Shown here piece after piece: positions 47,080-49,290 of a stretch of DNA of 64,000 nt. The first letter of the stretch is position 1; the number at the start of each line of letters is the position of its first letter. This DNA is from Verrucomicrobiia bacterium. GTDB lineage: Bacteria > Verrucomicrobiota > Verrucomicrobiia > Palsa-1439. Position numbers and translations under genes: made by a program. The stretch is from positions 73,182 to 137,181 of the forward strand of contig JBGQCJ010000001.1 in assembly GCA_041495285.1 (NCBI GenBank), read 5' to 3'. Under the pieces are notes generated by a model that saw only the letters and a program-made list of their open reading frames with translations, ran no database searches and had not been told where the DNA came from.

Positions 47080-49290
47080 ATGAAGACCGTTTTATTTGTC
47101 TGCACCGGTAATGTTTGCCGCAGTCCGATGGCCGAGGGCCTGCTCGAACGCATGCTCCGAGGCCGCAACGACATTCACACGCTCTCGGCCGGTCTCGGCG
47201 CGCTGGATGGACTCCCGCCGAGCGATGCGGCGGTCGAAGCGATGGCCGAAATCGGCGTGGATATTTCGCACTACCGCAGCCAGTCGTTGCGCGCCCCGTT
47301 GGTGGATCAGGCCGACATCATTTTCACGATGACCCGGCAGCAGTTGGACACTATCCAGATGCTCTTCCCGGCGGCGGCGGAGAAGGCGTTTCTGTTGCGC
47401 GAGTTTGAGGAAACGCGTCTCGGCGAGAACAAGGACATCTTCGATCCGATCGGCCAACCGCTCGAGGTCTACCGGCAAACGCGCGACCAGATTCGCAAGG
47501 TGTTGCCGGGCATTCTGGAGTTCATCGAACAGACCGAAGCGCAAGCGCGTCGAGCCGACCGGGAAGTCGCGGCTCCTGCCCCCGACGAATCGCGCCCGCA
47601 CCGCATCGCGGTAGCCGCCGACCACGGCGGCGTCGAGATGAAAGCCGCGCTCAAAGACTGGCTCGCGCTGCACGGCTACCAGTTTTCCGATTTCGGCACG
47701 CACACGACCGATCCCGTGGATTATCCCGACTACGCGTTCATCGTGGCGCGCGAAATCTTGGCCGGTAATTTCGACCGGGGCGTACTGATTTGCAAGAGCG
47801 GCATCGGCATGAGCATCGCCGCCAACCGGTTCGTCGGCGTGCGTGCGGCGCTGGTCAACGACGAACATGGGGCACGCCTCAGCCGTGAGCACAACGATGC
47901 CAACGTGTTGGTGCTCTCCGCGCTCGAAGAAGGCATGACCAACGAGAAAGCCGCCGCGATCCTCGACGTCTGGCTCACCACCAAATTTGAAGGAGGCCGC
48001 CACGAGCGGCGCGTGAAAGAAATGGATAATCCACCGCTTCCGACAACCAAGAAGACCTCTGCTCTCGCCCAGACCGATCCCGAAACGTTCGACGCCGTCC
48101 AACGCGAGAAGCAACGCCAGCAGGAAAACATCGAGCTCATCGCCAGTGAAAACTTTGTCTCACCGGCCATCCTCGAAGCCGCCGGTTCGGTCCTGACCAA
48201 CAAATACGCCGAGGGTTACCCCGGCAAGCGTTACTACGGCGGCTGCGAGTACGTGGACATCGCTGAGCAACTCGCCATTGATCGCGCGAAACAACTTTTC
48301 GGTGCCGAACATGCCAACGTTCAGCCGCACTCCGGTAGCCAAGCCAACATGGCCGTCTATTTCGCGACACTCCAGCACGGTGATCCGATTCTCACGATGG
48401 AATTGGCCCATGGCGGCCATCTCACGCACGGTTCGCCGCGCAACTTCTCCGGTCGCTTCTACAAGGTCACTCACTACGGCGTGCGCAAAGACACCGAAAC
48501 TATTGATTACGACCAACTCGCTGAACTCGCCAAGCAATCACGCCCCAAGATGATCACTGCCGGCGCTAGCGCCTACCCGCGCGTCATTGATTTCAAACGT
48601 ATGCGCGAGATCGCCGACATGGTCGGCGCGTTGTTGTTCGTGGACATGGCGCACATTGCCGGGCTCGTCGCCGCCGGCATTCATCCCAGCCCGGTACCGT
48701 ACGCCGATTTCGTCACCACGACCACGCACAAAACGCTGCGCGGACCGCGCGCCGGTCTGATTCTGTGCAAAGCGAAGTACGCGAAGGACATTGACTCGTG
48801 GGTGCTGCCCGGCATCCAAGGCGGCCCGCTCATGCACATCATCGCCGCCAAAGCCGTCTGCTTCCTCGAAGCGATGAAGCCCGAGTTCAAAGATTACCAG
48901 CGCCAGATCGTCAAGAACGCGCAGGCTCTCGCCGGTGCGCTGACCTCCCGGAGTTTCCGCATCGTCAGCGGCGGCACCGACAACCATCTCATGCTCGTCG
49001 ATCTCCGGCCCAAGAAACTCACCGGCAAGATCGCGCAGGAATCACTCGACCGTGCCGGTATCACGACGAACAAGAATCTCATCCCCTACGACCCCGAAAA
49101 ACCGCTCGTCACCAGCGGCGTCCGCCTCGGCACTCCCGCCGTCACGACGCGCGGCATGAAGGAACCCGAGATGGAACAGATTGCCGGGTTGATCACGGAA
49201 GTCTTGGAGAAACCCGACGATGCCGGCCTGCAAGCGCACGTGAAAGAAAAAGTTCGCGCCCTCACCGCAAAGTTCCCGCTGCCGTACTAA
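47080..49290 (+). CDS. glyA: Single-ORF fusion: low-molecular-weight protein-tyrosine/arginine phosphatase + ribose-5-phosphate isomerase B + serine hydroxymethyltransferase
   Basis: aa 1-~160 '[16 protein letters not shown]' (CX5R P-loop). aa ~170-320 '[14 protein letters not shown]...[14 protein letters not shown]' (RpiB/LacAB). aa ~325-736 '[16 protein letters not shown]...[14 protein letters not shown]' (SHMT PLP-Lys motif). No stop codons lie between the domains. Confidence 0.8.

Follow-up and report, generated by a model that had tools for sequence, protein, structure and literature searches.

The closest described counterpart of the protein analyzed here was pointed out by Hou et al. 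(2008; Biol Direct 3:26, PMC2474590), who remarked on an "unusual protein" of Methylacidiphilum infernorum V4, Minf_1669, with a low molecular weight (LMW) phosphatase, an RpiB and a serine hydroxymethyltransferase (SHMT) domain, and who read it as a link between the serine/one-carbon and pentose-phosphate pathways. More recently, RpiB proteins extended by an SHMT domain were noted in Limisphaera spp. and "different verrucomicrobia", and were linked to M. infernorum (PMC13608581, 2026). Our literature searches returned no further paper on Minf_1669 beyond the genome paper, no paper on the RpiB-SHMT form of Akkermansia and, on the biochemistry or protein-level behavior of the family, only genome-annotation remarks. 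In Staphylococcus aureus, the gene immediately upstream of glyA is ptpB. In the related phosphatase YwlE, Thr11, at position 5 of the P-loop, hydrogen-bonds the guanidinium group and gives specificity for phosphoarginine, and its replacement by Ile shifts the enzyme to phosphotyrosine (Fuhrmann et al., 2013); the same replacement raises activity on pNPP and phosphotyrosine in YwlE, PtpB and DARP.

The window, a stretch of 64,000 nucleotides from a Verrucomicrobiia bacterium, carries the three domains in a single gene (Table 1). An original prediction, made from the letters of the window, took this arrangement to be undescribed. That view is superseded by the 2008 paper, the Limisphaera paper and hundreds of NCBI and JGI proteins: the triple fusion is widespread in Verrucomicrobia, and it is real but already known.

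Results

One reading frame encodes three complete enzyme domains

The gene is a single frame of 736 codons without internal stops. The mass of its product, computed from the sequence, is 80.9 kDa, in agreement with the species of about 80 kDa that had been forecast. Its ATG, at 47080, lies 36 nt past the stop of the upstream S41 peptidase gene, and the equivalent start is used in the gene calls of 97 of 117 relatives. Pfam finds LMWPc (PF01451) at aa 4-143 (profile 1-141 of 144, E 2.6e-26, 93.0 bits, gathering score 23.2), LacAB_rpiB (PF02502) at aa 176-314 (profile 1-137 of 138, E 2.2e-49, 167.4 bits) and SHMT (PF00464) at aa 329-705 (profile 1-399 of 399, E 8.8e-171, 568.3 bits). The NCBIfam models agree: the rpiB equivalog TIGR01120 scores 153.1 bits over the full length of the module (cut-off 138.65) and the SHMT model PRK00011 (NF000586) scores 651.6 bits against 335. 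Reading frame and profile matches together thus confirm the earlier claim of three full-length domains in one frame, and its companion claim of intact catalytic motifs holds for all three domains, with the P-loop, D122-P123, D181-H182, C238, H271 and K551 present. Given these E-values and conservation in more than 100 independent assemblies, chance is ruled out.

Table 1. Features of the locus, numbered from the first nucleotide of the window
Feature	Coordinates	Strand	Remarks
zwf (glucose-6-phosphate dehydrogenase)	41812..43479	+	Upstream; G6PD_N and G6PD_C; stop-to-stop coordinates, true start later
purD (GAR synthetase)	44549..45784	+	Two genes upstream; Pfam GARS_N/A/C
S41 peptidase	45811..47043	+	Upstream neighbor; PF03572; signal-peptide-like N-terminus MMKKTIVLLSLLVWGIGPAWAASEA; 36-nt gap
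Fusion CDS, LMW phosphatase/RpiB/SHMT	47080..49290	+	736 aa plus stop; 80.9 kDa; ATG start
LMW phosphatase module	47080..47529	+	N-terminal, aa 1-150; YwlE subfamily by overall similarity; PF01451, E 2.6e-26
P-loop C8-T-G-N-V12-C-R14-S15	47101..47124	+	Val, not Thr, at specificity position 5
D122-P123 general-acid motif	47443..47448	+	Invariant, 117/117
Linker 1	47530..47601	+	aa 151-174; 10-30 aa in family; mean identity to window residue 0.29; predicted disordered
RpiB module	47602..48033	+	aa 175-318; D181-H182, C238 (47791-47793), H271, G305-G-R-H308; PF02502, TIGR01120
M315 codon	48022..48024	+	Candidate start of the original prediction; hydrophobic position of RpiB C-terminal helix
Linker 2	48034..48075	+	aa 319-332; Pro/Thr/Lys-rich; 13-24 aa in family; mean identity 0.52
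SHMT (GlyA) module	48076..49287	+	aa 333-736; PLP lysine K551 (48730-48732); PF00464, PRK00011
Terminator-like G+C-rich hairpin, then T-rich tail	49340..49359	+	50 nt past stop; consensus match only

The RpiB module has a Cys-type active site, in which D181-H182, C238-K-S-G-I-G and H271-N272 are invariant in 117 of 117 relatives, as is G305-H308; we take D181, H182, C238 and H271 to be the counterparts of E. coli RpiB Asp9, His10, Cys66 and His99. The SHMT module and bacterial SHMTs of solved structure (for example 1KKJ, E 1e-176) align over their full lengths, and the PLP lysine of the module stands in the sequence T-T-T-T-H-K; both K551 and the motif THKTLRGPR are invariant among relatives. 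A search of the PDB found no chain that covers more than one of the three fusion domains.

The fusion is conserved across Verrucomicrobiota

Orthologous fusions were found in abundance, as the original prediction had proposed to look for. At least 116 clusters (formed at 90% identity), with lengths of 700-760 aa and 68-100% identity to the window protein, contain all three Pfam domains, and clustering at 50% gives at least three triple-domain clusters, whose identities to the query are 58%, 46% and 39%. Nine more distant Verrucomicrobiota genome loci also hold the three domains in one stop-free frame; domain-wise BLAST confirmed the order LMW phosphatase, RpiB, SHMT in L001-L008 and L026. The window protein, with three domains in this order, belongs to this family of about 700-760 aa. 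Across its triple-domain members C8, R14, S15, D122, D181, H182, C238, H271, G305-H308 and K551 are invariant, and mean identity rises from the phosphatase (0.64) through RpiB (0.75) to SHMT (0.85). A 100% identical protein (P0001), called from M17, is present in NCBI and comes from a MAG.

The same three genes are known as a conserved cluster, a statement of the original prediction that our survey reproduces: they stand in the same order, as separate genes, in Firmicutes, Planctomycetia and Omnitrophota. These data support the conclusion that the ywlE-rpiB-glyA cluster genes have truly been fused in frame here. A single origin of the fusion is at most a possibility, with bootstrap support of only 39-57% for the deep nodes of a neighbor-joining SHMT tree.

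Partial fusions also occur. Carriers of a two-domain RpiB-SHMT form are Lentisphaerota, Kiritimatiellae, Akkermansia, Victivallales and some Verrucomicrobiota; the form also occurs, independently, in Deferrimicrobiaceae, Nitrospirota and Acidobacteriota. Chthoniobacterales/Udaeobacter have a phosphatase-SHMT protein without RpiB.

Linkers and internal starts

An AlphaFold (AF2) model, which is of the monomer and does not reach to quaternary arrangement, has three well-folded domains and two low-confidence linkers (pTM 0.55). The pLDDT is about 80-96 in the domains (mostly 82-96 in the phosphatase module) and falls below 50 at aa 156-171 and aa 319-325, in the linkers.

RpiB was said to lack its own Met, and it does: M94 is followed by M187, with none between. 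No in-frame ATG, GTG or TTG lies between aa 143 and 186; therefore RpiB is not made separately. The linkers were also described as lacking obvious ribosome-binding sites, which is essentially correct, the sole strong Shine-Dalgarno (SD)-like string near the second junction being GGAGG at 47992. This string is formed by the codons of a conserved RpiB F-E-G-G and lies 25 nt 5' of ATG 48022 and 16 nt 5' of GTG 48013; the usual spacing from SD to start is 5-10 nt.

The suggested internal start at the Met of "EMDNPP" (M315) did not hold up as well. Conservation speaks against it, and no SD-like motif stands at a working distance. The position is Met in 100, Leu in 7, Ile in 5 and Phe in 5 of 117 relatives, it is Leu or Ile in 5 of 9 distant triple fusions, and it aligns with the I/L of the C-terminal motif RRxEK[IL] of unfused RpiB, which reads RR[VI]xK[MLI] in the window family. 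As a conserved family feature, a start at M315 was rejected on the variability of this position.

The phosphatase module resembles YwlE but lacks its specificity residue

The first module scores above the gathering threshold over its full length and has the C-X5-R-(S/T) signature with a downstream Asp-Pro. Its nearest PDB chains are 4EGS, 4PIC and 4KK3, the latter two at E 7.7e-24 and 2.3e-22 versus 3e-14 or weaker for canonical LMW-PTPs; by similarity, aa 1-150 are thus closest to the characterized YwlE proteins. C8, G10, N11, C13, R14 and S15 are invariant wherever the gene calls of relatives include the N-terminus. However, the Thr that marks YwlE and PtpB at P-loop position 5 is replaced by Val12, and in the close family this position is Val in 87 and Ile in 10 of 97. 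Because Val or Ile takes the place of the specificity Thr, a YwlE-type phosphoarginine role is unlikely, and the module probably does not act as such a phosphatase.

The residue at this position differs with gene organization: in 13 of 13 loci where a free-standing ywlE-like gene adjoins rpiB or glyA it is Thr or Ser, and in 29 of 31 loci with a fused phosphatase module it is Ile, Val or Leu. Identity with a pI258-type ArsC was rejected: TIGR02691 gives 58.3 bits against a cut-off of 174.3, and C8 and C13 are the sole cysteines in aa 1-150. The ArsC of pI258 has a downstream pair, Cys82/Cys89.

Genomic neighborhood

The S41 gene is probably cotranscribed with the fusion gene, and the hairpin downstream of the stop, judged by its match to the consensus, is the probable end of the transcription unit. 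When 4-kb flanks of 80 related loci were compared, an S41 gene was found upstream of the cluster in 3 (L003, L012, L026), and purD within 4 kb of it in 5, from three phyla (L011, L021, L026, L040, L074). We count the same-strand position of zwf and purD ahead of the fusion gene, the downstream hairpin and the recurrence of purD in several phyla in favor of the proposal made below, and the small share of loci with purD nearby (5 of 80) against it. An Rfam scan of the whole window at gathering thresholds gave no match. We therefore set aside the idea that a leader RNA or riboswitch precedes the gene, where the gap is only 36 nt. A promoter scan returned 1 site, with 1.2 expected.

Discussion

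We consider it likely that the window protein is a lineage-conserved multifunctional enzyme, the product of an in-frame fusion of ywlE, rpiB and glyA, with three independently folded modules expressed 1:1:1 for nucleotide synthesis. Three neighboring genes, for an LMW phosphatase, RpiB and SHMT, would have been fused in frame, and one ribosome pass would then yield an 81-kDa chain in which three catalytic modules are connected by two flexible, poorly conserved linkers of some 15-25 residues: a Cys-based LMW phosphatase, a Cys-type RpiB and a PLP-dependent SHMT, each presumably retaining its standard chemistry. On that reading of the sequence, the protein may be called trifunctional. RpiB provides ribose-5-phosphate for PRPP, and SHMT provides the glycine and the one-carbon units that go into dTMP and the purine ring; from what is known of these pathways, the fusion would lock the feeder enzymes of nucleotide synthesis into 1:1:1 coexpression and colocalization. 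Because RpiB and SHMT are each obligate homodimers, the chain would assemble at least as a dimer. We know of no metabolite shared by RpiB and SHMT, so there is no rationale for channeling.

The doubts that can be raised concern the gene, the chain and the first module. A single window, even with an identical NCBI protein that itself comes from a MAG, cannot by itself exclude three genes wrongly joined in sequencing or assembly, by two stop losses or by frameshift errors. Conservation across clusters and genomes leaves this artefact next to no chance, in line with the original prediction, which had called it unlikely: the fusion recurs in nine more distant genomes, among them a complete chromosome (L007, CP170506.1) and contigs as long as 1.78 Mb, and in at least 116 clusters whose proteins come from NCBI, JGI, ENA and Logan assemblies, the linkers stay in frame everywhere despite sequence divergence, and a three-domain protein is encoded in the finished M. 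infernorum V4 genome (Hou et al., 2008, PMC2474590). If the gene is real, its product might still be a polyprotein whose linkers are cut after translation, so that three classical enzymes are set free, with the S41 peptidase encoded 36 nt upstream as a possible agent; exposure and disorder are predicted for the linkers, and the same kind of gene precedes the cluster in three further loci (L003, L012, L026). We regard this as extremely improbable. The peptidase has a signal-peptide-like N-terminus (MMKKTIVLLSLLVWGIGPAWA/ASEA) and is expected outside the cytoplasm, it occurs within the 4-kb flank of only 3 of 80 related loci, and the linkers, of variable length and with identities of 0.29 and 0.52, contain no conserved cleavage-like motif. 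To our knowledge, the processing of metabolic polyproteins is not a bacterial habit.

The chain could also be made in full and accompanied by free SHMT begun at M315 (ATG 48022) or V312 (GTG 48013), which would make the fusion partial at the protein level. Met at 315 in 100 of 117 close relatives, a GGAGG 16-25 nt upstream, and the retention of Met at the old SHMT start in recent RpiB-SHMT fusions of Deferrimicrobiaceae, Acidobacteriota and Nitrospirota are all compatible with this idea. It is nevertheless unlikely, given Leu, Ile or Phe in the remaining 17 close relatives, Leu or Ile in 5 of 9 distant triple fusions, the match of the position to the I/L of RRxEK[IL] in unfused RpiB, and a GGAGG that encodes the conserved F-E-G-G at more than the usual 5-10 nt; moreover, without a stop codon, the phosphatase-RpiB part alone would never be released by translation. 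That one module, most likely the phosphatase, is dead or has become a regulatory or scaffolding domain, leaving a bifunctional protein, is quite improbable. The phosphatase is indeed the least conserved domain (0.64, versus 0.75 for RpiB and 0.85 for SHMT), its specificity residue is unlike that of characterized YwlE and PtpB, and relatives without it exist (the RpiB-SHMT proteins of Akkermansia, Kiritimatiellae and Victivallales). Yet C8, G10, N11, C13, R14, S15 and D122-P123 are invariant in all relatives whose gene calls reach the N-terminus, which is unexpected for a dead domain, and a T-to-I change at position 5 does not abolish catalysis in YwlE, PtpB and DARP but makes them more active on pNPP and phosphotyrosine.

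Within the multifunctional-enzyme proposal, the change from Thr or Ser in free-standing phosphatases to Ile, Val or Leu in fused ones suggests that the fused module may act on a different substrate. Fusion might, on this speculative view, which we hold to be unlikely, have been accompanied by a change of job: the phosphatase could act on another substrate, such as phosphotyrosine or a small phospho-metabolite, or in cis on the RpiB and SHMT dimers, and the two dimerizing domains could also build a higher-order assembly that couples pentose-phosphate and one-carbon flux. Neither the job change nor such an assembly has been described so far.

The discovery value of the window protein is small, its architecture being in public databases by the hundreds and having been pointed out in 2008 and 2026. 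Its worth is that of a natural "Rosetta-stone" link, a sign that the long-conserved but unexplained ywlE-rpiB-glyA neighborhood reflects a real functional coupling, hard-wired across a phylum, which joins a small phosphatase to the supply of ribose-5-phosphate and of glycine and one-carbon units. Methylacidiphilum and Limisphaera are cultured carriers, and Akkermansia is one for the two-domain form; they open the question of what a YwlE-like phosphatase does outside the Firmicutes, where McsB/ClpC arginine phosphorylation defined YwlE.

Among known systems, Minf_1669 has the same three domains as the window protein, a likeness drawn from the paper's description only; it is a remark in a genome paper (PMC2474590) and was never characterized. 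The Limisphaera proteins (PMC13608581), which come from cultured relatives of the window's class, join RpiB to SHMT in the same way, although the paper speaks of these two parts only, leaving the phosphatase module unmentioned and reporting no biochemistry. The two-domain relatives share modules, order, linker style and SHMT clade with the window protein and differ in that one module is absent or separately encoded; these forms imply that the architecture is evolutionarily plastic. YwlE of B. subtilis (4KK3) and G. stearothermophilus (4PIC) and PtpB of S. aureus are the top PDB hits of aa 1-150 by sequence and have in common with the window module the P-loop context CTGNxCRSPMAE and the DP general acid, but they carry Thr at position 5 where the window has Val and its family Val or Ile. 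Finally, the cluster ywlE-ywlF(rpiB)-(ywlG)-glyA of Bacillus and other Firmicutes (L062, L071, L075) encodes these three enzymes in an identical 5'-to-3' order, but there each gene is separate and has a start and stop of its own, extra genes lie between rpiB and glyA, and the phosphatase has Thr at position 5.

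One reading frame with three complete enzyme domains

The fusion gene is a single ORF of 736 codons with an ATG start and no internal stops; its predicted product, of 80.9 kDa, contains three complete Pfam domains in the same frame. The middle part exceeds the NCBIfam equivalog cut-off for rpiB (TIGR01120, 153.1 bits versus 138.65), and the C-terminal part lies well above that for serine hydroxymethyltransferase (SHMT; 651.6 bits versus 335). All the catalytic motifs named in the original prediction are present, and its reading of three enzymes on one stop-free chain proved correct in each detail. 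Each of the three domains was seen only once within the 64-kb window, and a PDB sequence search found no chain covering more than one of them.

Features of the fusion gene and of the surrounding window (residues are those of the fusion protein)
Feature	Window position	Strand	Residues	Remark
MMPL-type membrane transporter, acyltransferase and SAM-methyltransferase domains	490-4419	+		1309-codon stop-to-stop frame
Beta-ketoacyl synthase-like gene	8955-11324	-		in a run of minus-strand genes adjoining the 490-4419 frame
Pyridine-nucleotide-disulphide oxidoreductase and 4Fe-4S ferredoxin domains	32073-34424	-		783-codon stop-to-stop frame
Glu/Leu/Phe/Val dehydrogenase	34352-35728	-		adjoins the preceding frame
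zwf (G6P dehydrogenase)	41812-43479	+		upstream
purD (GAR synthetase)	44549-45784	+		upstream
S41 peptidase	45811-47043	+		signal-peptide-like N-terminus; 36-nt gap to fusion gene
Fusion gene	47080-49290	+	1-736	LMW phosphatase (LMWP), RpiB, SHMT
LMWPc domain			4-143	Pfam E 2.6e-26, profile 1-141 of 144
Phosphatase motifs	47101-47124 (P-loop)		C8-T-G-N-V-C-R14-S15; D122-P123	present
LacAB_rpiB domain			176-314	Pfam E 2.2e-49, profile 1-137 of 138
RpiB motifs			D181-H182; C238-K-S-G-I-G; H271-N	present
SHMT domain			329-705	Pfam E 8.8e-171, profile 1-399 of 399
SHMT motif			T-T-T-T-H-K551	present
Terminator-like hairpin	49340-49359	+		3' of fusion gene
Type I restriction-modification methylase (HsdM-like, HSDR_N_2 N-terminal domain) and specificity subunit	49693-52883	+		after hairpin
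Class II fructose-bisphosphate aldolase	53684-54655			beyond restriction-modification genes

Conservation, junctions and start sites

An artefact of sequencing or assembly, already considered unlikely in the original prediction, is ruled out by the recurrence of the fusion and by its invariant catalytic residues. In a collection of 5.8 billion proteins clustered at 90% identity, at least 116 clusters of 700-760 aa, 68-100% identical to the query, each contain all three Pfam domains; they are drawn from assemblies in NCBI, JGI, ENA and Logan, and the contigs reach 1.78 Mb. The architecture also occurs in at least three clusters of a 50%-identity representative library (P0121, P0124 and P0211, respectively 58%, 46% and 39% identical to the query). 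Orthologous fusions in related genomes, which it had been proposed to seek, were found in nine Verrucomicrobiota among 80 loci taken from contigs of one genome per species (L001-L008 and L026), each as one stop-free ORF and one of them on a complete chromosome (L007, CP170506.1). Across 117 aligned relatives the catalytic residues listed in the table are invariant, the N-terminal ones wherever the gene call includes them. Averaged over each part, identity to the residue of the window protein is 0.64 for LMWP, 0.75 for RpiB and 0.85 for SHMT; it falls to 0.29 and 0.52 for the first and second linkers, which across the family are 10-30 aa and 13-24 aa long. Conserved modules with variable linkers mark this as three selected modules on unconstrained tethers.

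Another alternative is that part of the product is made separately. As predicted, RpiB has no Met of its own: there is none between residues 94 and 187, and the stretch from residue 143 to 186 offers no in-frame ATG, GTG or TTG either; the RpiB module therefore cannot be initiated separately. Because the junctions contain no stop codon, LMWP and RpiB are never freed by translation. For SHMT, the candidate internal start had been the Met of 'EMDNPP' (M315, ATG 48022-48024). Conservation argues against it: position 315 is Met in 100 of 117 family members and Leu, Ile or Phe in the others (7, 5 and 5), and of the nine distant triple fusions five have Leu or Ile there. In unfused or two-domain proteins its counterpart is the Ile/Leu of the C-terminal RpiB motif RRxEK[IL]. 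M315 therefore reads as a hydrophobic residue of an RpiB helix rather than a conserved initiator. The sole strong Shine-Dalgarno-like string nearby, GGAGG at 47992, corresponds to conserved F-E-G-G codons and lies 25 nt from the ATG at 48022 and 16 nt from a GTG at 48013. An additional, minor SHMT-only product from an internal start is conceivable; nothing demands one. At the N terminus, the database cluster P0001, an NCBI entry 100% identical to the query, is called from M17 (47128, not 47080), a call that drops the catalytic Cys8 and the P-loop. This start is shared by 20 of the 117 relatives, P0001 included, and is a systematic gene-calling error for the triple-fusion family.

The original prediction had not seen such a protein described, a statement that the literature overturns. 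Hou et al. 2008 (PMC2474590) noted a protein with the same three domains, Minf_1669 of Methylacidiphilum infernorum, and a 2026 paper (PMC13608581), which mentions only the RpiB and SHMT parts, reports RpiB proteins with an added SHMT domain in Limisphaera and in different verrucomicrobia, M. infernorum among them. With an identical protein in NCBI, the fusion is already known, and it is common in the whole phylum. The literature searched reports no biochemistry for any triple-fusion member.

Architectures and evolution

Architectures at the 80 loci were scored by domain-wise BLAST of stop-to-stop ORFs. The order ywlE-rpiB-glyA occurs elsewhere as separate genes, as the original prediction held.

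Architectures among the 80 loci (=, joined in one ORF)
Architecture	Loci	Taxa
LMWP=RpiB=SHMT	9	Verrucomicrobiota
Separate LMWP gene, then RpiB=SHMT	6	Lentisphaerota; two Verrucomicrobiota
RpiB=SHMT, LMWP undetected within locus	7	Akkermansia, Lentisphaeria, Deferrimicrobiaceae, Nitrospirota, Acidobacteriota
LMWP=SHMT without RpiB	22	Chthoniobacterales, Udaeobacter, Terrimicrobiaceae
Three separate genes, order kept	7	Firmicutes, Planctomycetia, Omnitrophota
Separate rpiB and glyA, adjacent	28	mostly Desulfobacterota, Acidobacteriota, Ignavibacteria
SHMT only	1 (L059)	

The named members of RpiB-SHMT protein clusters are Victivallales and Kiritimatiellae. RpiB=SHMT forms outside PVC, at around 4001-5740 of their loci, were seen in Deferrimicrobiaceae (L014, L019), Acidobacteriota (L028) and Nitrospirota (L037). 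In a neighbour-joining tree of the SHMT domain they nest among unfused relatives, and where SHMT formerly began they still have a Met (for example ...APMSFLKEADPEIF); together these features make them look like recent, independent stop-codon losses. The same gene pair, rpiB and glyA, has apparently been fused repeatedly.

Within PVC, the deep nodes of this tree are weak, at 39-57% of 300 bootstraps, and leave room for one or several origins of the fusion. Mixed clades are better supported: triple fusions (L004, L006-L008) group with LMWP=SHMT and Akkermansia RpiB=SHMT forms at 82%, and L063/L078 (LMWP=SHMT) group with Akkermansia (RpiB=SHMT) at 80%. Such groupings point to in-frame domain loss following fusion, of the RpiB domain in the LMWP=SHMT lineages. 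The LMWP=SHMT loci (L049-L058, L061, L063-L065, L067-L070, L073, L078-L080; around 4001-5800 in most) have a low-complexity linker of 20-60 aa between the two domains and adjoin triple-fusion Chthoniobacteraceae on the SHMT tree (clade support 82%). In two Akkermansia sp. MAGs (L020, L066; 4001-5737), the linker between RpiB and SHMT is very short (RRVVKSSGSPLQWSDPEL), and neither locus showed an LMWP. In the literature searched, no paper names RpiB and SHMT together with Akkermansia, which would offer a convenient cultured system for this form.

Genomic neighbourhood and proposed function

From zwf to the hairpin (41812-49359, plus strand), zwf, purD, the S41 peptidase gene and the fusion gene run head to tail, an apparent neighbourhood of pentose-phosphate and purine genes. 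In five other loci, from Verrucomicrobiota, Omnitrophota and Planctomycetia (L011, L021, L026, L040, L074), purD is likewise no more than 4 kb from the cluster. No Rfam family reached threshold anywhere in the 64-kb window. The restriction-modification pair may be an island inserted between the fusion gene and the aldolase gene; GC3 of its second gene is 0.57, against 0.7-0.8 in its neighbours. Elsewhere in the window, the frame at 490-4419 is a further multi-domain fusion that may belong to a lipid or polyketide-like cluster.

An AlphaFold2 model from a 57-sequence alignment has a mean pLDDT of 81.9, with the three domains at roughly 80-96 and residues 156-171 and 319-325 below 50. Its pTM of 0.55, for the monomer, means that no fixed interdomain arrangement is confidently defined. 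Three SHMT loops modelled at low confidence (370-388, 448-451 and 578-582) are plausibly those that require a dimer partner.

The gene encodes one chain with three intact catalytic modules on linkers that are flexible in the model, kept together over deep divergence. On this structural reading, the chain is probably a genuine multifunctional fusion whose modules are all active. Each module would retain its standard chemistry, and fusion would enforce equimolar, co-localised RpiB and SHMT. RpiB and SHMT are both dimers or tetramers, and the chain would assemble via their homodimer interfaces. RpiB could feed ribose-5-phosphate to PRPP and SHMT could provide glycine and methylene-THF; purine and thymidylate synthesis draws on both supplies. 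This nucleotide-precursor rationale fits the zwf and purD neighbours; taken alone, it is a tentative proposal that we would put a little short of evens.

The fused phosphatase module

Taken as a whole, the sequence of the N-terminal module is nearest the YwlE subfamily (PDB search: 4PIC, E 7.7e-24; 4KK3, E 2.3e-22). The top PDB match, 4EGS chain A (180 aa), bears the deposited name 'Ribose 5-phosphate isomerase RpiB'. Its full length matches the LMW phosphatase domain, with the P-loop CTGNTCRS, and the name looks like an annotation taken from the neighbouring gene. An ArsC identity was rejected, the module scoring below the cut-off and having no additional cysteines.

Papers that cite Fuhrmann et al. 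2013 trace the phosphoarginine specificity of YwlE/PtpB to the Thr at P-loop position 5; according to them, Ile there is typical of phosphotyrosine LMW-PTPs, and a T-to-I change raises activity on phosphotyrosine and pNPP and lowers that on phosphoarginine. In the window protein this position is Val12, and in the family it is Val in 87 and Ile in 10 of 97 sequences. Among the 80 loci, Thr or Ser occupies this position in all 13 LMWP genes that stand alone, and Ile, Val or Leu in 29 of 31 fused modules, L004 (Thr) and L008 (Ser) being the exceptions. This apparent specificity switch of the fused module correlates with architecture, but the correlation is confounded by phylogeny, since every fused form comes from Verrucomicrobiota. 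Judged by its P-loop, the module of the window protein lacks the Thr that defines a YwlE-type arginine phosphatase, and phosphoarginine is an unlikely substrate. The module is like YwlE in overall sequence, but differs from it at position 5, which is Thr in YwlE/PtpB and Val in the window protein.
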